A DNA stretch of 64,000 nt, from the IMG/VR virus record IMGVR_UViG_3300042519_000302; one strand, given 5' to 3'. The number at the start of each line of letters is the position of its first letter. Positions within the stretch are counted from its first letter, which is position 1. Origin of the DNA: a virus (taxonomy: Duplodnaviria > Heunggongvirae > Uroviricota > Caudoviricetes). This document shows positions 3,252 through 56,598 of this stretch, piece by piece. The notes beneath the pieces are model-generated. The model was not told where the DNA came from. It was given only the letters and a program-made list of their open reading frames with translations, and did no database searches. The position numbers and the translations under genes are program-made.

Positions 3252-3262
3252 TTGGATTAATT

Positions 3263-15200: not shown

Positions 15201-16129
15201 GCAGCTTTGTATTCTTGTATCTTCTTATTTCTAAAATCATTAAGATTATGGTATGCTTCAAAGCCAGCCTCACCCACTGTACCTAATGCAGCAACAGTAA
15301 TTTGTCCTCCTCTACCCAATGAAGAATAAGAAGACAAAAACTTATCAGAAAGACCTTTAAGTTTACCATATGTAGAAGCAGCTTTATCTGCAGCAATTAA
15401 TGCTTCTTCTGAAGCAGCAAGAGCCTCTGCTCCTTTGCCCATTGAAAATAATCTAGCTGTAAGTGGAATTGATTTCAAAGCAGCAGCATATGCTCCTCCA
15501 GATAATGCAGCACCTGCAGCAAAACCTAAATTCTTAACAACACCATCCCAAAGAAAGTTAGCACTAAATAATTTGCTTGGAGAATACCAATTGGCTTCTC
15601 TCTCATCAGTTTTATAATAGTTAGGTAATATATCTTCAGAAGCTTTTACAATCTTTTCATCTAAAAATCTATTCATCTCATTGTCATAAAGACTTGCAAA
15701 TCTTCCATCTTGACCCCATCTAATTATTCCATTTACTAATCCTACAGTAGATTGTAAGAATGTAGTTCCTGTTAGAACTAATCCTTTACCTACACCATTA
15801 ACCATTTTGTTAGCCCATCCTTGTCCTTGGGCATATGCATCTTCATTATTATAATCTCCAGGCATGAAGTTATCAAATCTATTAGAACTAGCTTCTGCTA
15901 ATGTTCTAGATATAGAACCACTAGTTTGTCTTCCTAAAGCATTAGATGGTGTAAGCACTTTATTCTCCCAAGCACTAAGAGCAGAAGGAGTAGGTTCTCC
16001 ATCAAGACTTGGCATACTACTATCTAGTCCTCTGAATGGAACAGAAGGTTGACCTTCTGCTATAGGAGGTCTATAATCGTTGAACTTAGTTTCCAATAAA
16101 GATCTATCTATTAAAGGAGTATCTGCCAT
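3263..16129 (-). CDS. Giant 4288-aa virion cargo/ejection protein. It carries a DFDID motif (aa 3429-3433, nt 5831-5845) of the type in the metal-binding loop of double-psi beta-barrel RNA polymerases, as reported for crAss-like virion RNAPs. It also carries an HEVFH zincin-like motif (aa 2060-2064, nt 9938-9952). There are N-terminal Gly/Ala-rich hydrophobic 'glycine-zipper' segments and long coiled-coil stretches.
   Basis: A single uninterrupted 12.9-kb ORF. I located the motifs by direct back-translation of the DNA. Its position at the distal end of the late operon next to other huge proteins matches the crAss-like cargo/virion-RNAP block. The RNAP assignment is inference from one short motif. 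Confidence 0.6.
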   Translation of the reverse strand: MADTPLIDRSLLETKFNDYRPPIAEGQPSVPFRGLDSSMPSLDGEPTPSALSAWENKVLTPSNALGRQTSGSISRTLAEASSNRFDNFMPGDYNNEDAYAQGQGWANKMVNGVGKGLVLTGTTFLQSTVGLVNGIIRWGQDGRFASLYDNEMNRFLDEKIVKASEDILPNYYKTDEREANWYSPSKLFSANFLWDGVVKNLGFAAGAALSGGAYAAALKSIPLTARLFSMGKGAEALAASEEALIAADKAASTYGKLKGLSDKFLSSYSSLGRGGQITVAALGTVGEAGFEAYHNLNDFRNKKIQEYKAANGGDEPIGEDLAKINQAAEEVGNNSYFANVGLLTATNYIQFPKILGATYKGEKGIINSLTKEIGEVTTDAAGKYIAAPNRFGKILSTLNKIRPYTFSASEAFEEGAQYAIGKTTENYYNKKYNNEPTSWLDSMAEGITQTLTTNEGMENVLIGGLSGALMLGRGKYSEAKEISKNTQAAISGFNKTNLSDFTKELRGSVNRGTTIQEEREQALRRGDVLESKDLERDYIINYLTPRIKYGRFDLVQSDINDYKKQAATDEGFAELQAEGKALDTDTKEAYLQRLTNLETTAENIKSLYQSLDVRYGGLINTDGKPVYSQKVMDQMIYAATKVADYDERLPQLMGVLDSVGIDTTSIVNDLTTGNSDSYIAAVEKVKASKSINEDELIQTLEDVAELALRRDNFLFEYSDIKKNPSKYSTEQSMDETVIDETAPKETVTVKTKDGEENIEVGTEYFLGRRVGYSKGGEKVYGFPRLTILGDNGDGTIKIKDSNGVIRDVSKEELADYKLGKVSDTLNNKKAKYFLEHANVTYEFNFGAKNGGKKPGRLEYSTKDNVLNFVYKDAKGRIKTIEITNDQFVAKPGFNEAMIMPVGKLTAVQQQAQEEFIAAVDDRVDAKRAGRLKILGELFDEVSGNLQKTTNLIKQKQEQFNKIVADLVELEEKISKGELTKTKAFKRTTAKAVASAVKLSRMKEQLTSELESLRAEQEQLEFNQAYVADMAQNIDEVPGGEELIQDLKEQTTDLQDMLIETGLNINSISKLIDLVDGALKTAIDFALDLIKKFEAKYPNLPYTPQGIRDFLNTTMVVGYEPSNRTSTYETYLQANPDLLNDLIEFERDIANIDEIDVIPNERTIGELRGELEALQTQLKEVEQELQAKELILNKFEAVAETYKKQQEQEKQLKADSKLINAVIGTLSKEKLDNAPYSDKYEPISKKGPKILVTSSIASKNILGYERANFFGNKFNSFPNKDNILGVIVTSANEDNVIPGLTSYLQNNNTDIDPTKTIALVMVEDQGNGNFKLVGQNGQPLAEGQDKLENAVFQVMPDESLQWGPDFGNETMFRNNTPEQTRKELKEQYIAWRKETLKSPDVSLQSITPSFGRPTRVTVTLAEGKKVTDPNAAVSVKAAGLIEDKDLIEKQLIEVPTVTKDISKGSTEFTDVLGRVFLVLDNAYVKLKNRKFNSKEATTIYKVLNQLSKNVFDDKGVEARSEYLIDWLRSVTFWGKPREGKDPGYNSIWFEREDGELRLFFSGKGESLSFTPQGMETQENSIVTLLQNMYNNVNARKVQNTDEYNLSYEEIIGIGENGVPQTKDWENYQTYLLSDEGRTANEIPLFTDIAALESPEDTNREGVYFTLRDAADNFTITEVVRTVPKSVVPGGVKAKPAAPVVTQEDDDESIVIGEEGKVAPIEKKPNSKFVLDGKTKNIFITPKGTRIAFIANRNLLAQGDIDKGIKILKGEDLDKAEKAILATGVKKEGIGRALKAPIANLLNVPVKKITTTEDDDSFTIPDEADADSIVIEDEEALAPVVSDIETKKAAIKGSLAAQGTFIELEIIGDTGKEFLLTVDRKGNISLFSEKQPDGSYKSGEAATKEAVINLYKKYVPSSTILKIQKWLASFTGSWAAPETEDGKNYDKAEKALNSELAALEGGKKTPPQVTTKGPAVKSSAIKAALLEDEEGDLREILENQIGTFKSENWKKLEQWLKANLPNVPVYRVKNVIKATGGKKAWGMYKNGAIYIYTNAEAGTAYHEVFHAIWNMFSDPKERKAIVNEFKNRKGSFTDRVTGQDIKYSEATPGQIKEELAEEFREYVLDKKIPPKPTDGRPYIVKMFSDLVNFIKEYFLGPQAARNTEELFKRIGEGYYKNASPYQSKLALAKPGIIDVEDAIGDPTSEYSLIAKGLLGEQVHDTIQQMTYATLTNLIATNQSLFDIPSKSRAVIYKDAKDNLRYTVVGKIKNVAAKMINEGKASKEDVAPEVAQAEQLFAIIDKNWDEITDIFEEQLLSYSIEFDENDDTQKTNENNTGKGDYQESEKIDMFKKANAAIKLLLATIPYRNARGKRELSSINGVKLIPMSKVYVDLKNALYNSDTADDMMEKLREFVESQKPEYGVIYERLTGQPSSEKLNPYANVKTDADLQLIHSFYKVMKGQAPDVVTVYTLPDGTVVTTDMSVGTASKQIANDMESSIISSIQNNLGKYYSYDAPNKMYVSIKKNVESQPLGTLERSVAFMKSLGVDIPIRMIRKFGFETDFNNAVAGIKKNLLEAEKIKFISSKTINTAGRVKEIAEMLAKIQNPDFESTYFNLEGDRVQSFIGGNAISSLRDFLTKITNKKQLVGSRYEYLLTDNFTTGSVFMDKIFDKDSGNKLPKGNDILTTAYAGGMIDDGLGKRKDPSSLTPSERLKEELNLNLAGYYMNLVPGDASLDWANYVGNNITLNSLKKDNSPIHRIFKGYFLSELAVSREGRKIVQDENKTRKTTDLRFFKNILGQKLHDDVISYDPKKDKSLEEVYAQFEPRINNAIDAFVKRDVERRKTVYSNYNILSEDDAGFNFNGVEFEKKTALSENNVDVNIKYLAVNYMINNIELHKLVYSDPYFYKDELKRIKSFLSPRQAIIYGSAGLNAAMNNVYNEGYTDVKDIGFTKFTDDYFKTITLDDVKGIADVEGFSKEYSSFTETDGGGMITMKAYRNFRIRAANWNSNEERQYRYDVAFEKREKGKDLSDDELNLLEEGNPQVKSAYTPLKPIVAGAKMSSKSYNDVVLDKFALYPLSYRVLHEINKDSNAIKLYNKMQEADIDYAVFDSGRKVGADKLIKLYDEQGNFNDSAIKKADKINVPFSIISVQSEVPSKDEAIVTRGSQITKLVTLDFLQAGVPIDFMPTEKDFNKRLEAWEALEDEKAMSDASPLFKQILENQDLLEEMASIGYQNLLDKLGIKQTKQGFEILDPEKIAKTLRSELFKREVNRNIVAALVGFEKGQVLIEASPMYSQVRNILYSIVDKNIVRPKINGGLKVQIPSTLFESVRPVGKNGLYESNVLKFYEKGGERVAEVMVGRWFDSDMSDEELLTYLNDTPEGQALLKGVAFRIPTQKQNSVDVIKIAKFLPKEFGDSVVVPAALVQKVGSDFDIDKLSMYFKNIYKGKDGKPKLIPYFGIGKDAIKKFEEMFDKGEFLSSEQLQELDRYIAEERVLLEDLIQEKSNASKLITAMIGNLNGLVNETEITEEFTKGIKAKDQIINLLYKKSIENQYVQSLENIIGSEANYTRLVTPNNAKLLKDMSIDITDKLGLGSFDYSSTDNMLNQIFMSRLRQAFVRGKYAIGLAAVAQTNHAQNQRSNMYVDRSLMSKLSKSDRKWLGDGIVKFGKYNTVKVGSRTVPSLSGIKDANNKNDISDIIGMFIDGYVDIAKGPWIMELGANPNVAPTWLFLVKIGVPIKEVAYFMNQPIIRDYVRELENSGYTWLFNDSTVTTIKESEKYKVDQSKLQGLNSIPNLTNLEKNIGKKSFDVAGKAEQQFILNEFLKYGMMANQLFKVVQGSNFDTTSFNDPMLIFKKEEQLSQARETMISSVDNLLNNSFIGRVRIGLRDSRNAIGNTVLTSDTRRVRAVLQRVLRPYVNMADRQFVKVARKAVNDLFDWAVQIDPTFKINMERDLLSKNGTAKQITDYFNKIKNDPEHVLHNNVIINSLAPKFSGAEEERPNNLYMTGKDNKVYDQNKVIYGFEELRNYMDSTGDLPLYKKLVKLAILQSGLSTSPISFTSLIPYDDFVEEYNEILSRLETLPNLEDFATLNVFERNNWNDDEIVPHKKAQWKTEKQDDGKLKTRYDNGAIKILNTGANIAMKAGTIPQLIKISTLSRESTKDIIVYSWEEIPKGKTRAEMVKASDFSFIKKGLFKKVTENGVDPLITYNRKGYEFIVYKAINAWGDSFRANEFYDGANQSKIDNGFMKVKEASDEAIASAFMSTQKTPPVEASEIDDVLNKKDGRCKKS

Positions 16130-36043: not shown

Positions 36044-38476
36044 TTATTTTAATTTAGCTTCTAGTTCAGCAATTCTTTTTTCTAAAGCTGCAATCTTTAA
36101 TGTATGCACATCCATGTAATTTACAGATAATTTTTCATTTCCTGAAACTGCATCTGGTAGTACTGATTGTACTTGTTGTGCAGAATAACCATATCTAATT
36201 GCATTACTGTCTTCATCTGTTCTTGTAAATTTAATTACATCTAGTGGCAAATCTATAGATGGGTTTGTTTCTAATACATTTTTAAATCTAATATCTGATG
36301 TTTCAAAATAACCAGCAGCATTTAAATAAATTCCACTAGAAATATAAACTCCTGTATTTGCTGTTGCACTATTAGATGTACCATTAGCTGTAAGTACAGC
36401 TTCTGCAGTGGTTGGAGATATAGAAGTAAATCCTGTTCCTGATGTACCACTAGCACCATTGGCTCCAGAGGTTCCTGAAGACCCAGGAGTACCAGTATTT
36501 CCAGATGTTCCAGAAGATCCATTTCCTCCATTCGCACCAGATGTACCTGCAGTTCCAGAAGAACCACTTGCACCACTTGTTCCACTTGTTCCACTGCTAC
36601 CATTCCCTCCGTTAGCTCCACTTGTACCACTAGAACCATTTCCTCCAGGACTACCAGTAGCACCAGATGTTCCAGAAGATCCAGAAGAACCACTAGAACC
36701 AGACGACCCACTTGTTCCTGGTGATCCAGGACCACCAGTAGCACCAGATGTTCCAGAGGAACCATTACCACCATTAGCTCCAGATGTTCCTGAAGATCCA
36801 GAAGAGCCACTAGAACCAGAACTACCAGATGATCCAGATGTACCACTAGCTCCAGATGTTCCACTTGATCCACTTGATCCACTTGATCCTGAAGAACCAC
36901 TTGTACCAGATGCTCCAGAAGTACCAGATGAACCATTTGCTCCATTAGCACCACTAGTTCCACTTGAACCAGAAGATCCAGAAGATCCAGATGAACCACT
37001 TGTTCCATTAGCTCCACTTGTTCCTGAAGATCCTGAAGATCCTGATGTTCCTGAAGAACCAACAGCACCATTAGCTCCAGCTGTTCCACTTGACCCACTA
37101 GAACCAGATGATCCACTTGATCCACTTGAACCAGAAGAAGCAGAAGTACCTGAAGATCCAGAAGATCCAGAGGAGCCTGATGATCCTGATGACCCTGAGG
37201 TACCTGAAGATCCTGAAGGACCTGTCACACTCGCTCCGCTTGTACCTGCAGTTCCAGAAGAACCATTTATACCTGCAGTTCCTGAAGTTGCATTTACACC
37301 ACTTGTACCACTTGTACCAGTACTTGTACCAGAAGTGGCAGCAGTACCTGATGTACCTGTTGATCCTGAGCTACCTGAACTTCCTGAGCTACCTGAAGAA
37401 GCAGATGTTCCAGATGTACCTGTGGTACCTGAAGTACCAGATGACCCTGAAGAACCAGATGAACCTGAAGAAGCAGACGTACCAGCTGTGCCAGAAGTAC
37501 CAGCTATTCCAGAAGTACCATTACCACCAGATGCACCAAACAGATTTACTGTCCATACAGCATAGGTTCCTGCACCTGCTGTGGTGGTGACATTAATTAC
37601 AATAGCACCTGTTCCACTATTATAAGAGGTAACAGTTCCTTGCATTGTATTACTTACATCATATACTATGATAGCTGTCTGTGCAACACTATATGCTAAC
37701 CCTGTTCCTACTGTTAAACTTTTTGATCCTGTTCCTATTAATAAAGAAGTTGTAGAACTTGTTAAATATCTATCTCCATCTTGACCTGCAGTTCCAGAAG
37801 ATGCTGATGTGCCAGATGTTCCAGATGTTCCAGCTGTACCAGTTAATCCACTAGAAGCAGAGGTACCAGAACTTGCACTTGTACCAGATGTTCCATCTTG
37901 ACCAGATGTTCCTGCTGTGGCATCTCTACCACTAGTTCCACTACTTCCATCTGTTCCAGAAGTAGCAGAAGTTCCATTTGAACCATCAGTACCTGAAGTA
38001 CCACTAGTAGCAGAAGTACCTGAAGTACCACTTGTACCACCTGTGCCACTCACACCAGCAGAACCACTAGTGCCATTTGAACCAGCTCTACCAGAAGAGC
38101 CACTAGTACCACTAGAACCACTTGATGATGTTCCAGATGTACCTGTAATTCCAGATGAACCAGAAGTACCATTTGTTCCAGAAGGACCTGTAACACCAGA
38201 AGTTGCAGATGTTCCATTGGTTCCAGATATGCCAGACGAGCCAGATATACCTGAAGTACCAGAGGTACCATTAAGACCAACAACACCATTACAAAGAGCA
38301 TCATCTATTTTTGATAGAGCACAGTCTAAGTTTTCTCCAGTTTGAATTCCTGAACAAGGAAGGTTAGGTCCATTATATATAACACGATCTGCTGTAGTTT
38401 CACAAGGGATAGAACCACAGTTTTCACTAGGTTGATAATATGCGTTATAACAAGGATCGCCAGGATTGCAAGCCAT
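36044..38476 (-). CDS. 810-aa tail fibre. It has a Cys-rich N-terminal anchor, a long collagen-like Gly-X-Y region (G-S-S/G-T-S triplets), and a C-terminal intramolecular-chaperone / peptidase S74 autoproteolytic domain (SDIRFK ... YGYSAQQV ... coiled coil).
   Basis: Gly falls at every third residue across more than 500 aa. The C-terminal ~120 aa matches the endosialidase-chaperone (S74) pattern, with the Ser-Asp ... Lys dyad context and a terminal LEKRIAELEAKLK helix. Confidence 0.85.
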   Translation of the reverse strand: MACNPGDPCYNAYYQPSENCGSIPCETTADRVIYNGPNLPCSGIQTGENLDCALSKIDDALCNGVVGLNGTSGTSGISGSSGISGTNGTSATSGVTGPSGTNGTSGSSGITGTSGTSSSGSSGTSGSSGRAGSNGTSGSAGVSGTGGTSGTSGTSATSGTSGTDGSNGTSATSGTDGSSGTSGRDATAGTSGQDGTSGTSASSGTSASSGLTGTAGTSGTSGTSASSGTAGQDGDRYLTSSTTSLLIGTGSKSLTVGTGLAYSVAQTAIIVYDVSNTMQGTVTSYNSGTGAIVINVTTTAGAGTYAVWTVNLFGASGGNGTSGIAGTSGTAGTSASSGSSGSSGSSGTSGTTGTSGTSASSGSSGSSGSSGSTGTSGTAATSGTSTGTSGTSGVNATSGTAGINGSSGTAGTSGASVTGPSGSSGTSGSSGSSGSSGSSGSSGTSASSGSSGSSGSSGSSGSSGTAGANGAVGSSGTSGSSGSSGTSGANGTSGSSGSSGSSGSSGTSGANGANGSSGTSGASGTSGSSGSSGSSGSSGTSGASGTSGSSGSSGSSGSSGSSGTSGANGGNGSSGTSGATGGPGSPGTSGSSGSSGSSGSSGTSGATGSPGGNGSSGTSGANGGNGSSGTSGTSGASGSSGTAGTSGANGGNGSSGTSGNTGTPGSSGTSGANGASGTSGTGFTSISPTTAEAVLTANGTSNSATANTGVYISSGIYLNAAGYFETSDIRFKNVLETNPSIDLPLDVIKFTRTDEDSNAIRYGYSAQQVQSVLPDAVSGNEKLSVNYMDVHTLKIAALEKRIAELEAKLK
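36556..38281 (-). repeat. Highly repetitive tandem 9/18-bp DNA units that encode the collagen-like Gly-X-Y triplets.
   Basis: Repeated units such as ccagaagaaccact and ccagatgatcc are visible. The repeat region generates long spurious ORFs in the other five frames. Confidence 0.8.
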
Positions 38477-43597: not shown

Positions 43598-43689
43598 ATG
43601 TAGTTAATTTTTGTTGGTTTATTTGCAGATGGTTCCCATCGAAGGGAACACTGTAAGGCATGGAGCCTGTACATGTCCATCTGTGTAAA

Positions 43690-43720
43690 GAAGACTCCCC
43701 CACTTGGAAGTGGGGGGGAA
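43690..43720 (-). terminator. GC-rich hairpin cccccact-tgga-agtggggg (43697-43716), flanked by U-rich tracts on both strands. Likely the terminator of the capsid gene.
   Basis: A perfect 8-bp stem in the 170-bp gap downstream of the stop at 43769. A further imperfect inverted repeat (cagatgg ... ccatctg with an inner gttccc/gggaac) lies at 43622-43680. Confidence 0.55.
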
Positions 43721-43768
43721 TTCTTCTTTGTATTTGTAGAGCGTAGTTCTAACCTTGCTCTAGGTTTT

Positions 43769-47286: not shown

Positions 47287-49878
47287 TTATTTAGTTTTAG
47301 GCTTAGCCTTTGCTCTTCCTTTTGCGTTCTCTTTAGCAATTGCTAAATCATTTGTTTGGTTTTCTCTAGATACTTGTATCTTTTCTCTCTCAACTTGTAA
47401 CTTTTCAGAAGCAAGTCTGTTTTTACTTTGAGCATCTTGTAGCTTCATTCTATAGTCCATAGATGCTCCTTCTTTTTGCATTGCTATTTTTTCAATTTCT
47501 AATACATCAGGATCACCACTTGCATCAATGTCTGATAAAGGACCTGACTTAGATTCTGCTGCAATTAAAGCAATTTCCTTTTTATTAATTCTATCAAGTT
47601 CAGCATTATAGTTCTCATTAGCTACTTTTTCTGCTGCTTGTTGTTGAGTTGATTCAATTTGAGCTTGAGCTATTTGTTGTTGTTGTTGAAGTTCTTGTTG
47701 CTTTTGTTGCATTTGTTGATCCTGCAATTGTTCTTGTCTATCCTTAAGAGTCTTAAATACTCTCTTCATTTGTCTAATAGAGTTAGTACTGTAAAGCTCA
47801 ATTACATCATGTAAAGATCCACCATTTTGTATAACAGCTTGAGACAATCCTCTAATTTCATTAAACATTTGTTTATCTTCAGGTCTATTAGTCAAGTAAA
47901 CTTTTAAATCTCTGAATCTAAGATCTGTACCATTTACAGATACAAATGCAGACTCTCCTTCAGAAGTAATATAAGATATAGTAGACTGTGGTTTAGCACT
48001 CTCAACATATAGAGCTGCATCAATAACAGCTTGATATAACTGACCCATGATGTATTCATGAGCTACAAATAAAGGTTCTGTTTGAGCATAAGATTGTGTG
48101 ATGGCAGCTTGCGTACCTGTAGCTGATTCACTAGCTTGTACAGATCCAAGTCTTTGTCTAGACATACCTATAAGTTCCCAACATTCATTCTTTATTTGTT
48201 GAGCTAGAGTATATCTTGCTTGGATCTCCTGTGTACGTGTAAGGTCAAGACTTGTGAATTGATTGAAGCTAGATGGACTCTTTAAGTTCTCTGGACTATC
48301 ATCAATAAATACCACTCCTCTATTACGTGCTTCCATTTCCCAGATATCTAATGCATCTTGAGCATCACCATCCTTAGGAATAGGAATATGTCTGATAGAC
48401 ATTAACTGCACCTTACCCACTTCCTTCTCAAGTAACTTATACAATTGGTTCATACAAACATTGTATATAACTTGGAAAGGTTTCATCATATCTACTAAGC
48501 TCTTAGCCTCTGTATTCTTAACTTCAAACGTTTGACCAATGATTGGACAATAAGGTAATAACTTATAAGGTTTGATATGGTAGATATCTGGACCAATCTT
48601 AATACCTTGGTACCATTGGTTAATCCATCCCCACTCTAATGATTCTTGTGTAGGAATAGTTCCAGACTTATAATTCTCATCTACTAACATAGATTGCTCA
48701 TTACCCATCTCATCTGTATATATTACTTTACCTATCTTCTTTTTAGAAATCCAATACGCTCTTACCACTACATATTTGTAACCAAACGAAGATACATTAG
48801 ATGTAAGTCCTAAGAAGTCCTTAAGACCATCATTGTTCTCTTTCATTTCTGATTCAATAAGCATTCTAGTTTGTAAAACTAATGGATCAAATGTATCATA
48901 CTGGATAGAGTCGTTACCTGGAACAGCATTAGGATTACCTAAGTTAGATTCACGTACATTGATCAATCCATAGTCTTGTAATGAACTACGTAAGTGATCT
49001 ATTTCATCTTTAGTTAAATCTGGAATAGACTCAATGATTTCAGATAATTCTAACACTTGTACAGTACCAGCAGCATAAGCTCCTTGTGCACGTCCTGTAG
49101 TATCAGATATCCACTTTCTATCTGGAGTAGTTAAGAACCAAGTGTTTTTAGGATTGGCTACCTCTACATTAAATCCAAGCTTGGAGTTGTCCTCATAGAT
49201 ATGAAAGAACTCTCTAGCAGATATTAAAAGGTCTCTAAATGAATCTTCACCTTTTTCTTTAAGATTAAACTCCATCTTCTGAGCTGTAAGAATATGATTT
49301 GCCCACTTCTCTGCTGTAGATGTATAACTATCTAACTCATCCTTAACTTCATCTAAAGTCATTTGATTTATCTCCTCATCATCAAGTTCTTCTCCAGACA
49401 TAGCAGCATCTTCCATTATTTTCTGCTTAGCCTTATTAACAACATAATCATTTAATATCTGAGTCTTAAATTCTAACTCCTCAGATTTACTATCATCATC
49501 AAATGCTTTGACACGAAATGCATCAGGTCTTTTGCTGATCTCTCCTATTAATTCATTGATAGGAGTGGTCATTATAGAATAATGTTTTACATAAGCAGGA
49601 AGCTCAAGATCTGATGTAAGCACATCTGTAAAACTTCTAACTTCTGGTTCTACATAGAAATCTTCTCTTCTTAAAATACCTTTAATAAGGTCATAGTTTT
49701 TTACAAATGTATCTCTAGCTTTGACATACTCAGCATAAGCTTTGTTTGCAAAGTAGTCCATTGAATTCTTTATCCAGCTTTCATCCATCTTTTCCTTCTC
49801 AGTTTTAAACTGATCAGGGAAGATATTCAGATAAGCATATCTTATTGTTGCGTCTTTCGTGTACCTTATAATTGCCAT
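47287..49878 (-). CDS. 863-aa portal protein.
   Basis: Large ORF immediately downstream of the terminase with a TAATG overlap at 49878. It has a Q-rich coiled coil and a basic C-terminal tail, and its size fits crAss-like portals. Confidence 0.6.
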   Translation of the reverse strand: MAIIRYTKDATIRYAYLNIFPDQFKTEKEKMDESWIKNSMDYFANKAYAEYVKARDTFVKNYDLIKGILRREDFYVEPEVRSFTDVLTSDLELPAYVKHYSIMTTPINELIGEISKRPDAFRVKAFDDDSKSEELEFKTQILNDYVVNKAKQKIMEDAAMSGEELDDEEINQMTLDEVKDELDSYTSTAEKWANHILTAQKMEFNLKEKGEDSFRDLLISAREFFHIYEDNSKLGFNVEVANPKNTWFLTTPDRKWISDTTGRAQGAYAAGTVQVLELSEIIESIPDLTKDEIDHLRSSLQDYGLINVRESNLGNPNAVPGNDSIQYDTFDPLVLQTRMLIESEMKENNDGLKDFLGLTSNVSSFGYKYVVVRAYWISKKKIGKVIYTDEMGNEQSMLVDENYKSGTIPTQESLEWGWINQWYQGIKIGPDIYHIKPYKLLPYCPIIGQTFEVKNTEAKSLVDMMKPFQVIYNVCMNQLYKLLEKEVGKVQLMSIRHIPIPKDGDAQDALDIWEMEARNRGVVFIDDSPENLKSPSSFNQFTSLDLTRTQEIQARYTLAQQIKNECWELIGMSRQRLGSVQASESATGTQAAITQSYAQTEPLFVAHEYIMGQLYQAVIDAALYVESAKPQSTISYITSEGESAFVSVNGTDLRFRDLKVYLTNRPEDKQMFNEIRGLSQAVIQNGGSLHDVIELYSTNSIRQMKRVFKTLKDRQEQLQDQQMQQKQQELQQQQQIAQAQIESTQQQAAEKVANENYNAELDRINKKEIALIAAESKSGPLSDIDASGDPDVLEIEKIAMQKEGASMDYRMKLQDAQSKNRLASEKLQVEREKIQVSRENQTNDLAIAKENAKGRAKAKPKTK

Positions 49879-51917
49879 TATGAAAACAATTTATTTCGTT
49901 TATATTTATTTTTTGATTGTCCAAACATGTTGTTTCTAGAGTCAGTGAAGAGTATGTTTCCTCTCTTCTTCTTAAACATAGAAGCAACTCGTTCATCACC
50001 TGTTCCACCTATCTTACCCATTATTGGGTCCATCTTTAAAGCTTGTGCTATGGCTAACTCTGCAGCTATGATTCTATCAAAGTTACCTGAATCATTATAT
50101 TGAATAATCTCTTCAAGCAATACAGGATCAAATATCTTACTCACACCTAACACTTCTCTAATCACTTCTCCTGCATCATTCTTTTCTACAAAGATTGGAG
50201 CTTCCATATACTTCTTTAAACAAGTGTGAAGATAGTCAATTATCTTCTGACTTGAACGATGAATACCATAATCTCTTTTTACAGTAGTGTTAGGAACAAT
50301 TTCCTTAAGCCACTCAGGTTGTCTTTCTAAAAAGTGAGCATCTCCTTTAGCTTTCATATATTCAATAAAGGATATATCATCATTCTCACAAAGAGCTCTA
50401 GCGTTATAATACTTTATAAGAAGTCTAGCTTGTTCTTCCCAAGTTTCTTTCTTATCAGGTCTTGCACAATACGAAGCTACAAACATATCTTGATACTTCT
50501 CACCACTAATTTCATGCATCCTTTTATATATGTATACAGATCCAAGCGAAGTTGAATATGCAGACTTACCTTGTCTATATGGATCGACTCCTGCTACATA
50601 CAATCCATAAGGTGGATTATCTATAGGAAATTCATATATAACAATAGGTGCTTCTTTTAAGTCTGAGTTCTTTAGAGGGAAGTTAGATATAGGTAGTTTA
50701 TCTGTAAACTCATGAGCTATCTTCTCTCCATCATTAAACAATATAACAGGAGTTCCTGTTCTTTCTTGTTGTAACAGTCTAGTCTTCTGTCTCTTAGCAC
50801 TCTCAATGTCAAATATATTTGTGTCCTCGTTCAAGAAGATATCATCTACTTCTTGAGGATAGTACATCTTTTCTTTTAAATAGGCTATACGATCACCAGC
50901 TTTCTTAAGTCTTTCTAGGTTTTTGTTAGTAATTTCTGTAGCCTTATCTTCATTACTTACAAGCATTTTAACATTATGTAAGTCTGAACTAGTTGGCTCG
51001 TTTAAATATTCTCCTAGTGTAGAATCCTCCTTTGCCTCCATTCTATATTTATGGGAGATAAACAAACCATGTATACGTTTGTCATCTTTAGCATTATTAT
51101 ATGTAAGGAAATTAAAGTTGTCTACGTCAAACATTAAACTTTTGGCATCCATGAATTTCTTCATGTCCCCACCTGTACCAGTAAGAATGGGACTACATCC
51201 CCAGCCATAGGGTGTAGTGAAACCTGGAATAGCAGCCTGTAAGCCTCTAAGAAAATTCCCTTTACCAATCTCATCTATAATTAATTTACGTGGTTTTGTA
51301 CCTGCAATTGCCTCTTCATTATTACCTTCATCAAGGTTACGTATTAGAATGGAAGAGAATGGGATACGTTCACCAGACTTGGTCTTTATACCTAGAGTCA
51401 CTTGGTTCTTCCAGTTATCCTCAATTCTCTGCCACCTCCAATACTCAGGAATGAAATTCAATCCTTTGTCAATCTTATCAGTAATCAGTTTTATATCTGG
51501 GGCATTTAAGCCTGCTATGATATTCTGACTGTTTTCATCAAAGGTCGCACCCCATGCAATATAGGATGCTTCAAGAACAGACTTGGCAAAACGTCTAATA
51601 CCTAGAATGACTAAGCCCCTCTTTTCTTGTTGAGCTCTGTCAATTTCGTTCGTCACAAGCCATTCATTATCTCTCAATAGGGGATTGGCATATTTCTGTG
51701 CAATCCTCCCATAACTATCTATTATATCTACTTCTGTATGCCATATATTAAGGTGCCAGTAAAGGAAAGGGTTAATATATGTACCTCCCATCATAGCTCC
51801 ATTTAAGCATAGCTCTCTGTGGAAGTCAAAGAATGGCTTACACTCCTGAGATTCTTTATCAGGAATACGCTTCTGATTTATAAACCAGTCTTTGTAGTCT
51901 ATACTTTGTAGTTCCAT
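49878..51917 (-). CDS. terL: 679-aa terminase large subunit.
   Basis: It has a deviant Walker A (GIRRFAKSV), a Walker B (KLIIDEIG), and a C-terminal RNaseH-like nuclease segment (VAGVDPYRQGKS). It sits adjacent to the portal. Confidence 0.8.
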   Translation of the reverse strand: MELQSIDYKDWFINQKRIPDKESQECKPFFDFHRELCLNGAMMGGTYINPFLYWHLNIWHTEVDIIDSYGRIAQKYANPLLRDNEWLVTNEIDRAQQEKRGLVILGIRRFAKSVLEASYIAWGATFDENSQNIIAGLNAPDIKLITDKIDKGLNFIPEYWRWQRIEDNWKNQVTLGIKTKSGERIPFSSILIRNLDEGNNEEAIAGTKPRKLIIDEIGKGNFLRGLQAAIPGFTTPYGWGCSPILTGTGGDMKKFMDAKSLMFDVDNFNFLTYNNAKDDKRIHGLFISHKYRMEAKEDSTLGEYLNEPTSSDLHNVKMLVSNEDKATEITNKNLERLKKAGDRIAYLKEKMYYPQEVDDIFLNEDTNIFDIESAKRQKTRLLQQERTGTPVILFNDGEKIAHEFTDKLPISNFPLKNSDLKEAPIVIYEFPIDNPPYGLYVAGVDPYRQGKSAYSTSLGSVYIYKRMHEISGEKYQDMFVASYCARPDKKETWEEQARLLIKYYNARALCENDDISFIEYMKAKGDAHFLERQPEWLKEIVPNTTVKRDYGIHRSSQKIIDYLHTCLKKYMEAPIFVEKNDAGEVIREVLGVSKIFDPVLLEEIIQYNDSGNFDRIIAAELAIAQALKMDPIMGKIGGTGDERVASMFKKKRGNILFTDSRNNMFGQSKNKYKRNKLFS

Positions 51918-52780: not shown

Positions 52781-53075
52781 ATATTGTTTGTATTAATTGA
52801 TCTTCATCTTCCTTAGATTCCATTTCTGGTCCCCATTTGTCTATAGGACAGCTACAAGATAAACACTTAGTTTTGGCTGATAGGACACATCCACAATGGG
52901 TGCAATGCTTATCAAATCTACGAGGCTTCTTAGGTTTGTTCTCAGAACACCATTCGCATTGATCACAAATGGCCATACGTTCCTGGCTCACTTGTCTAAT
53001 CTGTTCTTTTATTTCATCAGCTGGAAAGAGGTTGTTCTTCCACCCCTCGTATATCTGAGAGAAGTTGATCTTCAT
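52728..53075 (-). CDS. 115-aa zinc-finger protein (CDQCEWC ... CTHCGC ... CLSCSC). The start may be the internal Met at ~52979.
   Basis: There are four CxxC-type pairs. The annotated start overlaps the HU-like gene by 59 nt. Confidence 0.5.
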   Translation of the reverse strand: MKINFSQIYEGWKNNLFPADEIKEQIRQVSQERMAICDQCEWCSENKPKKPRRFDKHCTHCGCVLSAKTKCLSCSCPIDKWGPEMESKEDEDQLIQTIYGKQGSENREDSTGQAN

Positions 53076-53418
53076 ATATAGTTTTTGTTGTTAGCAAATT
53101 GATCAGAGCTTCTGTTTTCTCTAGTGTCACCTTAGATGAACGTTTCTTTTGTTCAGATGTAGTTTCATCTATTATTATCCTTTCCATTGCCTGCTTCTTA
53201 GCATTCAACTGTCCTAGTCGTTTTACAGCTTTCTTCTCATTAAAATAGAACTTACCAAAGCCAGATATCTCCAGACTATTGTTAAGATCCATTGCCTCAT
53301 TGGCAGACTGAAACTGATGGTTCACCACAGCTTCAATCATCTTTTCACTCATCATCATCTTAACTGCAAGGGTCCTAACTAGGAAGTCTTTGACAGACAT
53401 GCTTATAGGCTTATCCAT
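53017..53418 (-). CDS. 133-aa HU/IHF-family histone-like DNA-binding protein.
   Basis: It has an HU-type beta-arm signature, GFGKFYFNEKKAVKRLG (compare GFG(T/K)F of HupA/IHF), preceded by a helix-turn and followed by a C-terminal extension. An IHF-like gene in the packaging module is typical of crAss-like phages. Confidence 0.65.
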   Translation of the reverse strand: MDKPISMSVKDFLVRTLAVKMMMSEKMIEAVVNHQFQSANEAMDLNNSLEISGFGKFYFNEKKAVKRLGQLNAKKQAMERIIIDETTSEQKKRSSKVTLEKTEALINLLTTKTIYEDQLLSDIRGVEEQPLSS

Positions 53419-53785
53419 GTATTAGACTTATTTGTAATACAATATCCTTGTCGAAGTTGAGCAGAATAAGAGGATTGACCTTCACCTTTGTCCCATCCTT
53501 TACAAACACACCCATCTTCTTCAGCTTACTAATAATGTTATTGATTGCAGGAGATGTGCTGTCGTATTTCTCACAAAACTCCTTACGTATGTTAGCATAG
53601 GATATATTACCCTTCATAGCAGCAAACGCAATAAGCTGTATCTCCCTGTTTGTCAACTTAAGGTCGTTGACAGATGACAAGATCCTGTAATACTTCTCAG
53701 CCAGGACGTAACTGTCCTCCACTGATTTTTTCAGTCGTTGTACAATGGGAGATTTAGGTTTGGTTTCCATAATTAGTTGATACAA
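53411..53785 (-). CDS. 124-aa protein, function unknown.
   Basis: ORF in the operon. Confidence 0.4.
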   Translation of the reverse strand: MYQLIMETKPKSPIVQRLKKSVEDSYVLAEKYYRILSSVNDLKLTNREIQLIAFAAMKGNISYANIRKEFCEKYDSTSPAINNIISKLKKMGVFVKDGTKVKVNPLILLNFDKDIVLQISLIHG

Positions 53786-53848
53786 AGGTATGTATATCTT
53801 ACCTATCTACAAATAACAATTTTAGTTATTATAAAACTTAATGCTATA

Positions 53849-54094
53849 TTATGCATCAAATCTCCTAAACAGGAAAATAAAGCTAAATAACAACAGTCCT
53901 ATCCTAAGCTCTTGTTCTAATCCTCCATCGTCTAGCTTGTAGTTTCTATTAGACACTCCTAGTTCAAAACTGTTATAGTCTTTAGGGAGAAACTCTATAC
54001 CTATCTCATACTCCTCAAAGCAGACTAACCCCCATACAATCACTGCCATACTAAGCAATATCACTATTGTCAACAACACATTTACTACTACCAT
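53849..54094 (-). CDS. 81-aa small membrane protein with an N-terminal TM helix and a second C-terminal hydrophobic segment. It is the first gene of the minus-strand operon.
   Basis: Hydrophobic stretches VVNVLLTIVILLSMAVIVWGLV and IGLLLFSFIFLF. Confidence 0.45.
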   Translation of the reverse strand: MVVVNVLLTIVILLSMAVIVWGLVCFEEYEIGIEFLPKDYNSFELGVSNRNYKLDDGGLEQELRIGLLLFSFIFLFRRFDA

Positions 54095-54472
54095 ATATCT
54101 AAGCTTTGTTTACAGGGAGGAATTAACAGGGCCCCCCCTAAATCCCCCCCAAAGATACTGCTAAATAAATTTACCAGCCAAATTTATTTTTTCCTATTAT
54201 CAAAACTTGCAGGATTTTCTAGTTTTGATACAACAGGTTATTATAATCATGGATATGCACGATAACCTGAATTATCGTTATTATACACGATAGGGTATAA
54301 TGTCCCATATATGCTATAACATATAATATGTAAGATGATTCCATCATTATATGTAAATCCATATCATAATGTGTCATAAAAGCAACATTGTTAAGCTGAG
54401 CGTGTCCCTTATAAGACACATTATGTAAAGCTATAGATTGACTTTTGGCAGAATATAATCAAGCTATAACTT

Positions 54473-54591
54473 GCCAAATCAGGAAGTGAAACACAGCCAA
54501 ACCAGGAAGTCTTTGTTACCTATATATATAAATCTGTAACAAATACCTATATAAATATGTCACAAATATTTGAAAAACTGTGACACAATAT
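54473..54591. promoter_or_regulatory. Iteron-like direct repeats in the divergent control region. There are 2 copies of CCAAA(T/C)CAGGAAGT at 54475 and 54497, and 3 copies of TGTNACA(A/C)AATA at 54535, 54558 and 54579. All are spaced ~21-23 bp apart.
   Basis: Read directly from the sequence. The periodicity is about two helical turns. Confidence 0.55.
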
Positions 54592-54672
54592 GCATGAAAC
54601 TTTTGGAAAAATTCATGCAAACGTTCCTTGTGGAACTATCCTGTGCTTTGACTATGTACACAATTTTCTATA

Positions 54673-54737
54673 TGCCCCCAGTCTTATCAGCCCATCCCCT
54701 CTAGCCCCCCAAAATTTTACATAGCCCCCAGTCTTAT
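54673..54737. repeat. A 14-bp GC-rich direct repeat GCCCCCAGTCTTAT (54673-54686 and 54724-54737), followed by an imperfect GC-rich hairpin (ggaggagggta ... tacccctcc, 54748-54782).
   Basis: Read from the sequence. The GC-rich islands stand out against an otherwise AT-rich intergenic region. Confidence 0.6.
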
Positions 54738-54839
54738 TGTATCCATGGGGGAGGAGGGTACTTCCAGTTGGCTACCCCTCCTGCAAATGGGGGATTGGGT
54801 CAGTCCCCCACTATTAATAAAGCCTAAAACACAATTAAC

Positions 54840-55247
54840 ATGGCAAATTTAACATTGAACAAAGTTCAGTATCAATCTTCAAGCGAAGATTACAATTGGG
54901 AAACTGCAGGAACAGTAGCCTCTAATTTCAAAGGTCACACAATGAGATTCACTAACAACAACATTGCTAATGACAAAAAGCGTCTCACTATCATTACCAA
55001 GAAAGGTAAGGATGAGTTCACTCTTTCTTGTAGTGGTCCATTGTCCATCAAAGTAAGAAAGGCTTTGAAAGAAGGATTGAGTAAGAAGAGTGCATTAAGT
55101 GCATTAGTTCAACTTGATTTGAATGTTGACCCTGAAGATAACACGCGTTACTTCATCTTCCAACCTAAAGGCGATGCAAATGATGCCTTCACTGTTGCTG
55201 ACTTGACAGAAGAAGCTATCACCTATGATGAGCTTGCTGCTTATTAG
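54840..55247 (+). CDS. 135-aa early protein, function unknown.
   Basis: First plus-strand ORF after the divergent region, followed by a strong terminator. Confidence 0.5.
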   Translation: MANLTLNKVQYQSSSEDYNWETAGTVASNFKGHTMRFTNNNIANDKKRLTIITKKGKDEFTLSCSGPLSIKVRKALKEGLSKKSALSALVQLDLNVDPEDNTRYFIFQPKGDANDAFTVADLTEEAITYDELAAY

Positions 55248-55254
55248 TAGCATA

Positions 55255-55290
55255 AAGAGAGCAGTCTTAATTGATTGCTCTCTTTTTCTT
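55255..55290 (+). terminator. Intrinsic terminator with a stem aagagagca/tgctctctt (55255-55263 / 55276-55284), a 12-nt loop, and a TTTTTCTT tail.
   Basis: A perfect 9-bp stem plus a T-run, 8 nt after the stop codon. Confidence 0.7.
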
Positions 55291-55627
55291 ATATAGGGTG
55301 GGCTGAAGGCTTTAGGGTGGGGACTATTGACTAACTAACTCATTGATTATCAACATTTTGTTTGTGATTGAGAGAGGTGGTGTGTACTCTTTACCCACTT
55401 ATTACCACATTTTGACACATCATTAATAACAGCTATACAATACAATATATATAGCATTAAATAGCATTTATATGTACAACGTTAAAAGATTTCATATACA
55501 GCTTACTAAAGATAGTGAGTGGACTATTGAGTTAGGGCATTCATTAGCTCATGTTATGCAGACATTAGTATTAGACTATTCTGCTACACCATATTCATAT
55601 TTTATCACTGAGTATTAAATAACATTT

Positions 55628-55825
55628 ATGACTACGAGAACAAAGATATCTAACTGTGATGTTAGAATTAAAGCAGTGGCTGAACCTTATGGTTTTAAGA
55701 CTCTTGGTACATTTCATAAGTTCCTTAAGCAATGTAATCCTTCTGCTAAGCTCTATTATGGTATTAGTCATATTAGAGTGACAGAGATGTTAAGGTTTGT
55801 TGAAAGATTTTATTTAACCAATTAA
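55628..55825 (+). CDS. 65-aa early protein, function unknown.
   Basis: ORF. Confidence 0.35.
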   Translation: MTTRTKISNCDVRIKAVAEPYGFKTLGTFHKFLKQCNPSAKLYYGISHIRVTEMLRFVERFYLTN

Positions 55826-55836
55826 ATCATATTTAT

Positions 55837-56040
55837 ATGAGAAACTACAAAGTTACATACTTACAAGAAGATTATTCTATTAGAGTTAAATTCATTGCTG
55901 CTAATAGTGCTGATGAAGCTAGATTATTAGTCTATAATGATATAGTTGATTGTATTCAGACGTTAAGTGCTGAATGTACACAATCAATATCTATATTGAA
56001 TGGTGATATGGCTAATGAGTTTAATGACACACATTATTAA
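55837..56040 (+). CDS. 67-aa early protein, function unknown.
   Basis: ORF. Confidence 0.35.
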   Translation: MRNYKVTYLQEDYSIRVKFIAANSADEARLLVYNDIVDCIQTLSAECTQSISILNGDMANEFNDTHY

Positions 56041-56085
56041 CCAAGCCTCTTATTTTTATTCACACACATATTAAATAAAAAACAC

Positions 56086-56598
56086 ATGAAGAAGATTAAA
56101 GTCTTAATAGACAATGGATTTATTACATTACAAGATGTATTCGATTATGTTGATTCAGGAGCTTATCTTAATTCAAGAGCACCTGAAAACAATGCTGATC
56201 AAATGGCTAGAGATGATGATAATGATCAAATGGAATGGTCTGATGACTATTACAAACAACTAGCTGCTGAAAATGAGGCTGCAGAACAATTAGCTCATGA
56301 GCTTAATCGTACAGATTATATTGACGCTCATCCAGAGTATGTTCTTGCTTCTACAAGTGATCTTATGGAAGAGACAATGGTATTTCCTTCTAATAAAGAT
56401 GGAGATATCACTGATTTGGGTGATCTTGCCTGTTTAGCATTAAGATATGGCTCTGATAATTGGGAAGATCCTATAGCTGCTATTATTCAATTAAACACTG
56501 ATGAGTATAAGTATATACATGTCAAGACGCTTAATGGTGGTAACAACATACACAATCTATTCAAAAGAATCACAGTTTCAGATATCGTAGTCATTTAA
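56086..56598 (+). CDS. 170-aa strongly acidic early protein. Candidate DNA-mimic / anti-restriction-type protein.
   Basis: The composition has a very high D/E content and an A/C-rich leader before the ATG. Confidence 0.4.
   Translation: MKKIKVLIDNGFITLQDVFDYVDSGAYLNSRAPENNADQMARDDDNDQMEWSDDYYKQLAAENEAAEQLAHELNRTDYIDAHPEYVLASTSDLMEETMVFPSNKDGDITDLGDLACLALRYGSDNWEDPIAAIIQLNTDEYKYIHVKTLNGGNNIHNLFKRITVSDIVVI

Follow-up and report, generated by a model that had tools for sequence, protein, structure and literature searches.

What does a phage keep in the long non-coding stretch from which its genes diverge: promoters, a replication origin, a packaging site or a structured RNA? The locus in question is a 745-bp gap in the IMG/VR record IMGVR_UViG_3300042519_000302, of which a stretch of 64,000 nucleotides was analyzed (hereafter, the window), and it extends from a leftward open reading frame (ORF) at 53849-54094 (- strand) to a rightward ORF at 54840-55247 (+ strand). 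An earlier reading of the letters by a model (the original prediction) had described a divergent control region with five kinds of repeat or hairpin element, a candidate origin or early-promoter hub. All five were found where it had placed them, although some spacing and the third copy of one repeat needed slight correction. Our analyses indicate that the gap is probably, in the main, a transcription control region, composed of a two-part conserved core and an optional middle cassette. The promoter hub was supported and sharpened by a leftward -33/-7 promoter, by its likeness to promoters of the crAss-like phage phi14:2, and by a conserved rightward block with a leader; an iteron origin and a slippage hotspot were not supported.

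The window comes from an uncultured crAss-like phage. Its ORF of 4288 amino acids (aa) at 3263-16129 (-) contains a single DFDID motif, at residue 3429, a motif that is catalytic in the virion RNA polymerase of phi14:2 (bioRxiv 10.1101/2020.03.07.982082). The leftward operon begins with an 81-aa ORF and continues via an HU/IHF-like gene to the large terminase gene (49878-51917; PHROG 6681, E = 3e-84), with the terminase genes located 2.2 kb from the gap. Cultured relatives were distant: in a tblastn search of a phage collection the top terminase match, from Leptolyngbya phage Lbo-JY46, had 39.6% identity, none exceeded 60%, and phi14:2 was not among the 15 terminase matches listed; blastn recovered no match to 53000-56500 in the same collection. 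In IMG/VR, 513 contigs carried terminase relatives, and the best 80 of the 513 were fetched (83-100% identity). The gap was aligned from 28 relatives and motifs were then scored in 47 distinct gap-spanning loci, while the comparison of the rightward block covers 224 metagenomic loci, window included. Six of ten metagenome-assembled genome bins carrying terminase relatives were Bacteroidota or Kapaibacterium, two of them Sediminibacterium (one with a contig of 111,986 nt). The phage belongs to a freshwater clade whose hosts are probably Bacteroidota.

The left part of the conserved core comprised the following features:

54150-54191, - strand: leftward host-type (Bacteroidota sigma-A) promoter, recognized by pattern match, conservation and its phi14:2-like form
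54157-54150, - strand: -7 box TATCTTTG, a match to TAnnTTTG
54182-54179, - strand: -33 element TTTG, with a 21-nt spacer to the -7 box
54191-54183, - strand: A/T-rich upstream block AAAAATAAA, directly upstream of the -33 element and conserved in the alignment
54132-54150, - strand: G7-ATTTA-G7, on the plus strand two C7 tracts (54132-54138 and 54144-54150), with base 54150 common to the tract and the -7 box

In Bacteroides promoters, the -33 TTTG is located some 19-21 nt upstream of the -7 element. The window has an exact TTTG-N21-TAnnTTTG match on its minus strand, in keeping with the Bacteroidota consensus TAnnTTTG/TTTG (PMC2483708). A -33/-7 pair had been proposed previously, with TTTG at 54204-54201 and TAAATTTG at 54186-54179 separated by a 14-nt spacer, but it was misassigned: the TTTG within TAAATTTG is itself the -33 element, and the true -7 box is TATCTTTG. 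This promoter (CAAAGnTA on the plus strand) was kept in 45 of the 47 distinct relatives though the flanking sequence diverges, and its minus-strand form in relatives consisted of AAAAATAAATTTGG, N19 and TAnCTTTG, with a G-rich tract at once after. In the window, 55 nt separate the end of the -7 box from the downstream ATG (54094) with which the first leftward ORF begins.

The C-rich tract adjoined CAAAG in 44/47 relatives, either as the exact C7-TAAAT-C7 form (12/47 loci) or as the alternative CCCACCCnnCACCC (33/47), and the two forms interchanged even between near-identical genomes (e.g., locus L001 versus the window). Three C7 runs were present in the window against 0.55 expected (5 of 100 shuffles reach three), two of them 12 nt apart. 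The suggestion that these tracts are slipped-strand hotspots was not upheld, since the length was 7/7 in 30 of 31 loci with the C7 form. The C7 tracts would instead be promoter-proximal G-rich sequence, the initial transcribed region of a leftward transcript that probably starts within the G run. The host sigma-A promoter would drive the operon from the 81-aa ORF to the terminase, with its start in the G7-ATTTA-G7 tract. A G-quadruplex reading of the G-rich tracts was rejected, several variants having only three G-runs.

The leftward promoter resembles a set of promoters that have been mapped by experiment. In phi14:2, the middle promoters P070, P075, P108 and P110 were located by primer extension and are used by the host RNA polymerase (Drobysheva et al., bioRxiv 10.1101/2020.03.07.982082). 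Upstream of g070, g075, g108 and g110 we found (T)TTG-N19-20-TA(TA/CT/GT/TC)TTTG, the same form as in the window, behind an A-rich block that may correspond to the A/T-rich block of the window as the third part of a tripartite motif, and P110, which heads the leftward block in the divergent gap of phi14:2, has an identical -7 box, TATCTTTG. Genes for IHF subunits are also reported to have this motif class upstream (bioRxiv 10.1101/2020.03.07.982082), and the window operon has its HU/IHF-like gene. The likeness has limits: in the window and its relatives the -7 box is followed by the conserved G-rich tract (G7-ATTTA-G7 or GGGTGGAGGGTGGGG), which the four phi14:2 promoters lack; the phages are distantly related; and the phi14:2 promoters are mapped, whereas that of the window is predicted from sequence. 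By its sequence form, we assign the leftward promoter to the phi14:2-type, host-dependent middle promoters of crAss-like phages. By analogy with P110 it would be a middle-class promoter used by the host RNA polymerase, such that the leftward operon, previously termed late, would rather be middle.

Two other sites in the window are of note. A second exact promoter match, TTTG-N19-TACCTTTG at 53813-53783 (-), was located directly upstream of a 124-aa ORF and overlaps the listed TTG start of that ORF (53785); the true start is probably ATG 53770, which would leave a very short leader. The third 7-nt G/C run, the only other one in the window, was at 43680-43725, in a 171-nt gap between two minus-strand ORFs. 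It is part of a terminator-like hairpin, which reads CCCCCAC-TTCCAA-GTGGGGG on the gene strand and has TCTTCTTT behind it.

The right part of the core lies before the first early ORF:

54709-54761, + strand: promoter-like block of fixed geometry, a candidate early promoter or initiation region, comprising AAAATTTT (54711-54718), a spacer of ~17-18 nt, TTGTAT (54737-54742), CC, and ATGGGGGAGGAGGGTAC (54745-54761)
54747-54781, + strand: hairpin H1, the imperfect GC hairpin of the original prediction, with G-rich arm GGAGGAGGGTA and TACCCCTCC, which folds in the window
54788-54810, + strand: hairpin H2, TGGGGGA / TCCCCCA with loop TTGGGTCAG, recognized by comparison
54825-54842, + strand: TAAAA ribosome-binding motif (54825-54829), 10 nt before ATG 54840 of the first early ORF (135 aa)

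Across relatives, the block takes the general form of an A/T tract, ~N17, TTnTAT, NN and ATGGGAGnGGAG..TAC, and belongs to a GC-rich right end (54709-54816). An nhmmer profile of 54705-54815 recovered exactly one copy per locus in all 224 loci, and in exact-pattern scans each contig matched once, eight contigs of 102-119 kb among them. The sequences aligned without gaps when anchored on TAC, with the consensus aAAa.TTTtT...a..ccc.....c..tt.TaT..ATGGGaG.gGAGg.TACT.C. Such fixed geometry is what a promoter would show. Among the 47 loci, the leftward promoter and the block were 77 to 705 nt apart, and in locus L068 the -33 element directly abuts the A/T tract of the rightward block. TAnnTTTG is missing from the block, which is consequently not of the host sigma-A type, and the block together with H2 matches no described family.

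The two hairpins differed in how they are conserved. H1, with arms at ~54750-54760 and ~54773-54781, is present and folds in the window, but in relatives the 3' arm changes to CCCCGTG, CCCCACG or CCCCCCA without compensation, and the conservation of H1 is one of sequence, with no support for that of its structure. At the H2 site, a G-run/C-run hairpin was present in all block-bearing sequences inspected, in most relatives as an inner GGGG/CCCC hairpin with a variable outer stem (e.g., GCCATGG/CATGGC, GACAAG/CTTGTC, TTACGCA/TGCGTAA and GCGGTGG/CACCGT). For H2, cognate-versus-permuted duplex energies were used in place of RNAalifold, and the MAFFT seed for an H2 covariance model was found to be shifted by one base between subfamilies. 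The outer stems covaried, kept by compensatory changes. Among 35 distinct flank pairs, the cognate duplex had -4.85 kcal/mol versus -3.11 +/- 0.30 kcal/mol when permuted (0/20000 permutations), and among 98 distinct pairs, -4.40 versus -3.43 +/- 0.18 kcal/mol (0/20000), with 27 distinct strongly paired 5' arms. Of 124 distinct sequences, which are not independent of one another, 80 folded better as the plus strand (Wilcoxon p = 4e-5). Extended stems reached up to 15 bp, with loops of 3-11 nt. In the window the stem ends ~30 nt before ATG 54840, the position in which a rightward transcript would carry H2 ahead of the first early start codon. H2 is probably an RNA leader hairpin for stability or translation control.

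TAAAA is a Flavobacterium-type ribosome-binding motif (PMC2483708). Where an ORF was called (45 relatives), its ATG was 86-128 nt past the GGGAG anchor in 35/45, and the first early ORF had 115-149 aa in 36/45. The products themselves form at least three families, with no BLASTP links between them; in five compared sequences from two of these families, the C-terminus had an acidic stretch and a hydrophobic or aromatic last residue (YDELAAY, YEDVAF, YDELVAY, AEELIAF and LEELAGA). Searches of Pfam, PHROG, NCBIfam and PDB gave no match for the first early ORF, and the 135-aa protein of the window, used as a query, had no relatives in IMG/VR. A second long intergenic region follows this ORF (55248-55627), with a terminator-like hairpin (55254-55285), two GGGTGGG motifs (55296 and 55315, +), a near-consensus TTGACA-18-TACAAT (55412-55441), and a palindrome, GCTATA..TATAGC, that echoes the core of an 18-mer box described below. 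Within it, 55336-55479 was conserved in many relatives, unlike the flanking ORFs.

Between the two parts of the core lies the cassette of repeats, for which we noted the following:

54198-54230, no strand: inverted repeat TATCAAAACT (54198-54207) / AGTTTTGATA (54221-54230), from a repeat finder; 8/47 relatives
54230-54247, no strand: conserved motif ACAACAGGTTATTATAAT; a ACAGGnnnTTATAAT-like motif is in 15/47 relatives
54248-54310, no strand: window-specific insertion of ~63 nt with TATAAT on both sides and direct and inverted repeats of its own
54365-54387 and 54403-54425, no strand: two palindromic sites, ATAATGT(G/C)(T/C)C-TTATAA-G(R)(S)ACATTAT, candidate operators for a dimeric DNA-binding protein
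54425-54475, + strand: 18-mer boxes GTAAAGCTATAGATTGAC (54425-54442) and ATCAAGCTATAACTTGCC (54458-54475), 33 nt apart
54474-54487 and 54497-54510, + strand: two CCAAAYCAGGAAGT boxes (GGAAGT boxes), a direct repeat
54512-54636, no strand: series of inverted repeats, with the four elements that follow
54512-54519 / 54536-54543, no strand: TTTGTTAC / GTAACAAA with a (TA)n centre; 6/47 relatives
54558-54564 / 54579-54585, no strand: TGTCACA / TGTGACA; 12/47 relatives
54591-54603 / 54607-54619, no strand: TGCATGAA... / ...TTCATGCA; 14/47 relatives
54623-54636, no strand: GTTCC-N4-GGAAC; 23/47 relatives
54674-54687 and 54724-54737, + strand: two exact copies of GCCCCCAGTCTTAT, 50 nt apart, flanking the A/T tract

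This richness in repeats is exceptional for the window. The 745-nt stretch from 54101 held 20 local inverted-repeat seeds, the top of the 64-kb window (median 1, 99th percentile 12), and 14 direct-repeat seeds versus a window median of 0, and the gap folded better than its shuffles on the plus strand (z = -4.85) and on the minus strand (z = -8.0). Neither the repeat motifs of the original prediction nor the 18-mer recurred elsewhere in the window at 0-1 mismatch. Small ORFs inside the gap are regarded as non-conserved because relatives differ by indels and whole modules. Rfam 15 gave nothing above its gathering score in the whole window and only chance-level matches at E <=1 in 53500-55500, and ARAGORN detected no tRNA or tmRNA gene in the window.

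The two best-conserved array elements, the palindromic pair and the 18-mer pair, had been overlooked previously. The palindromic sites (23-nt arms, 83% complementary in the repeat finder) were among the best-conserved columns of the gap, with 0.67-0.85 identity to the window versus ~0.5 in flanking coding DNA, and were present in 23/47 relatives, in which each arm is self-palindromic (TGTCCCTTATAAAGGACA) and the two arms do not covary. The 18-mer has the consensus GTAAAGCTATAGCTTGAC with a palindromic core, AAGCTATAGCTT; at least two copies were found in 28/47 relatives, with the adjacent pair 32-33 nt apart in 27 of these 28, and IMG/VR contigs with the exact 18-mer, one of them 107 kb long, had it at one locus each. 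Four diverged loci (L009, L019, L022 and L041) also have a 57-nt module, GTTCACAAATAAAGCTTGTTCACGAATACGTGAACAGAAGGAAAATGTGAACAATAT, with GTTCAC/GTGAAC inverted repeats between the second palindromic site and the first 18-mer; it is absent from near relatives and looks like a small inserted cassette.

Several elements required modest redescription. The pair given as CCAAA(T/C) copies 22 bp apart was present as CCAAATCAGGAAGT (54474-54487) and CCAAACCAGGAAGT (54497-54510), but these are 23 nt apart start-to-start, with a 9-nt gap; the CCAAAYCNNGAAGT box was in 17/47 relatives, where the pair is kept as ...AGGAAGTGAAACACAGCCAAACCNGGAAGTC. Three TGTNACA copies were likewise there, TGTAACAAATA at 54535, TGTCACAAATA at 54558 and TGTGACACAATA at 54579, but the literal 12-letter pattern fits only the third copy, with one extra base, and the "three direct repeats" TGTNACAAATA are better seen as arms of two inverted repeats. 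In 8/47 relatives, TGTCCAG...CTGGACA occupies the position of TGTCACA...TGTGACA. The GCCCCCAGTCTTAT pair was exactly as described, and its second copy lies inside the spacer of the promoter-like block; the 14-mer (<=3 mismatches) was found in 9/47 relatives only, such that the exact repeat is clade-specific and the C-richness of the spacer common. TAGTTTTG, at 54220-54227 (+), matches a -7 box without a -33 partner. The ~63-nt insertion was absent from all aligned relatives, even those ~94% identical elsewhere.

On the conservation of the repeats in related phages, a point on which the original prediction hinged, the result was divided. Array modules were kept in 6-28 of the 47 loci, in varying combinations, but the arrays were missing from 15/47 relatives, in which the two cores are 77-166 nt apart; these 15 loci at <=166 nt had no second 18-mer box, and no palindromic site except one in L049. 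Because these 15 relatives keep both cores, the arrays are accessory, most likely operators. The operator reading follows from the sites being unique, phased and partly palindromic, and the middle cassette would then supply binding sites for phage-encoded DNA-binding proteins that tune both promoters. Flanking small proteins included one HU/IHF-like match in the adjacent operon, and otherwise only sub-threshold winged-helix and zinc-ribbon hints in two neighbouring ORFs. Associations between gene content and array presence followed clade structure only.

A number of observations weigh against the transcription-control reading and its parts. With regard to the hairpins, covariation was absent from H1 (cognate -12.8 versus chimeric -12.3 kcal/mol), RNAalifold on a MAFFT alignment of 43 block sequences returned zero pairs and no consensus structure because the 3' arms are out of register, and H1 and H2 in the window alone folded no better than shuffles (z = -1.65); owing to these last two results, the case for H2 is a comparative one. 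With regard to the block, a sigma-70 consensus scan of the gap gave matches not above shuffle expectation and did not flag the block, which matches neither the host consensus nor a known promoter. It is also single-copy, whereas polymerase-specific phage promoters are usually multiple, and the ~20 nt of strong conservation past its presumed start fit a protein- or RNA-level signal equally well. When metagenome contigs were scanned, their starts did not accumulate at the GGGAG anchor, and the nearest ends were 45-57 nt upstream of it. With regard to the arrays, Pfam, PHROGs, NCBIfam and PDB searches of flanking small proteins recovered no binding protein for them, and a neighbouring 119-aa ORF had only sub-threshold winged-helix-like matches. 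Finally, since the gap folds even better on the minus strand, the palindromes could function as DNA elements or within a leftward RNA.

Within the transcription-control reading, the block would be the control or initiation region of the early operon, with a transcript beginning near the G-rich 20-mer. Because the block is without a host -7 box and the phage encodes the 4288-aa protein with DFDID, the virion RNA polymerase would be its most likely user. That the block and H2 form the recognition and initiation site of a virion-packaged RNA polymerase of the crAss-like type is nonetheless a tentative proposal, unlikely as matters stand, and the single-copy status and downstream conservation leave room for other roles of the block. 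In phi14:2, no common motif was detectable upstream of the early transcripts made by the virion polymerase (bioRxiv 10.1101/2020.03.07.982082), and it is for this reason that the block is a concrete candidate for the missing early element. If the proposal is true, this would be the first sequence-defined early promoter for the crAss-like virion polymerase class. Still less likely is a priming of replication by R-loops at the G-rich tracts that directly follow the two divergent promoters, which would make the core a transcription-primed origin.

Better-known phages offer partial parallels. T7- and N4-like phages cluster promoters at the early-gene end, T7 transcripts start G-rich (TATA-GGGAGA), and early transcription involves hairpins in both, which in T7 are RNase III sites and in N4 are promoters of the injected RNA polymerase. 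The N4 promoter hairpins have a stem of 5-7 bp and a 3-nt loop, form in the template strand, and occur in several copies at the early end. The virion polymerase of crAss-like phages is of the two-barrel type and not related to the enzymes of T7 or N4. T7- and N4-like phages have three or more promoter copies, in contrast to the single-copy block, and the common TATA..GGG(A/T)GG start motif was not enriched in the window. An N4-type hairpin promoter was considered for H2 and rejected, given its single copy per genome, longer stem and variable loop, and better fold on the non-template plus strand.

The nearest counterpart was in phi14:2 itself. Its g110-g111 gap (NC_021806 97753-98110) has the same layout, with a leftward host-type promoter and a G/C hairpin before the first rightward ORF. 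This hairpin, TTGGGG-AGTAT-CCCCAA followed by AATTAATTAATC, is ~70 nt upstream of that ORF and is the only GGGG..CCCC hairpin outside a predicted tmRNA in the 55 kb examined. The similarity of the phi14:2 gap to the block was not significant (nhmmer E = 7), and neither a GGGAG block nor arrays were seen there, so that the hairpin resemblance is a lead and not a test.

Of the explanations that compete with transcription control, the one that survives best proposes that ~54230-54830 is transcribed rightward as one long structured non-coding RNA (ncRNA), a leader or long ncRNA (lncRNA) whose inverted repeats are RNA hairpins, like the early ncRNAs of phi14:2. The series of at least six inverted repeats and the plus-strand fold of the gap are in line with it, as are the covariation and plus-strand preference of H2 and the exchange of TGTCACA..TGTGACA for TGTCCAG..CTGGACA in other clades, and abundant early RNAs do come from long intergenic regions of phi14:2 (bioRxiv 10.1101/2020.03.07.982082). 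However, the modules come and go independently and the whole middle can be missing, the operator arms are self-palindromic without mutual covariation, and the minus strand folds better overall. Moreover, no Rfam family was found, and the gap does not resemble in sequence the non-coding region of phi14:2, which in part looks like a tmRNA. We consider a single long RNA of this kind quite unlikely.

The tmRNA-like part of phi14:2 deserves mention in its own right. At 4031-4502 (+) of NC_021806, ARAGORN predicts a tmRNA with the tag GSSVQKLAMVA*, and Rfam RF00023 gives a full-length match of 46 bits (gathering score 47; E = 1.4e-16), within the long g004-g006 gap and with no RefSeq CDS. The preprint describes the g004-g006 stretch as an abundant early lncRNA of unknown function, and names a tmRNA prediction only for other genomes (bioRxiv 10.1101/2020.03.07.982082).

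Very unlikely, in our estimation, is an iteron-type origin, in which the 18-mers, the GGAAGT boxes (23 nt) and the palindromes bind a phage initiator, the (TA)n stretch at 54517-54557 is the unwinding element, and replication proceeds bidirectionally from the strand switch. The arrangement has genuine likeness to lambda ori, P1 oriR and plasmid oriV, which likewise have direct repeats phased by whole turns beside AT-rich DNA: the direct repeats of the gap are phased at ~2-3 helical turns next to its most AT-rich stretch, and the elements are unique in the genome. Unlike iteron origins, however, for which three or more phased copies of a 17-22 bp repeat are expected, the gap has only two good copies per box type, two 18-mers and two 14-mers (46/47 loci have <=2 copies of the 18-mer, which some relatives accompany by a degenerate further copy), and a third of relatives lack the arrays. 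The window gap has no TTATCCACA DnaA box (<=1 mismatch), no relative has more than one, and no Rep-, RepL- or O-like gene was among the flanking ORFs tested with Pfam, PHROGs and NCBIfam. The iteron origin of the original prediction is thus not supported, in view of the copy number, the lack of a DnaA-box cluster and of a linked initiator gene among the ORFs tested, and the dispensability of its arrays.

Its suggested check by cumulative GC skew did yield a minimum at 54-56 kb, but the switch falls exactly where the genes change orientation, and the leftward block itself has a stretch of near-zero skew (24-32 kb), so that the skew is uninformative on an origin. In Carjivirus communis, a predicted origin has the corresponding genomic position, where the forward-strand block begins and the GC skew switches (PMC10983915). 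That prediction rests on an adjacent repL, OriFinder and read coverage, whereas no repL-like gene was found in the window flanks. In one subclade (L041, L043, L051, L052, L056-L060, L062 and L075), a single perfect DnaA box, TGTGGATAA, stands beside the -33 element; the window has the TATCAAAACT/AGTTTTGATA inverted repeat at that position instead.

The least probable alternative, a genome terminus or packaging site (direct terminal repeats, DTR, or pac) at which the repeats are small-terminase sites, virion DNA ends in the gap and early genes enter first, is not supported: it accords with the nearby terminase genes, with the short DTRs of crAss001 and the DTR signal of C. communis at its strand switch (PMC10983915 for C. 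communis), with contig ends within 7 kb upstream of the terminase operon in ~48/80 loci versus 5/80 downstream (best 80 of 513), and with nine contig ends in the gap, five at the C-rich tract/leftward promoter and four at the GC-rich block, yet those nine do not coincide at the nucleotide level and sit at conserved-block edges, contig ends overall spread over ~4.5 kb of hypervariable early region, the first 34-36 nt of two nearly complete contigs that begin in the gap (103,660 and 113,936 nt) occur once in IMG/VR, such that these contigs have no DTR, the arrays are dispensable, and assembly breaks at conserved/variable junctions in mixed strains explain the contig-end pattern more simply.

Elsewhere in these genomes, we noted that the linear record of Lbo-JY46 (PP438436) ends ~8.4 kb upstream of the terminase operon, and that tRNA genes, ~20 in number, and a homing endonuclease crowd this 8.4-kb stretch (positions 1-8400); the window is devoid of tRNA genes. 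In the window, an 810-aa ORF at 36044-38476 (-) has extensive in-frame tandem repeats at 36400-38230, with periods of 9, 18, 27, 36 and 63, and the 2 kb around them are the GC maximum of the window (42.7%).

The opening steps of infection by crAss-like phages pose an open question, in that an injected giant RNA polymerase transcribes the early genes and the early promoter motif is not known (bioRxiv 10.1101/2020.03.07.982082). The clade studied here offers a deeply sampled candidate, one conserved non-host block before a fast-evolving first early gene. Back to back with it, the host-type promoter can act as an internal control, and the locus can serve as a template for in vitro transcription and for the mapping of transcription start sites in metatranscriptomes. 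More generally, the optional nature of the arrays should temper origin calls that are made from phased repeats and GC skew where gene orientation switches at the same place.

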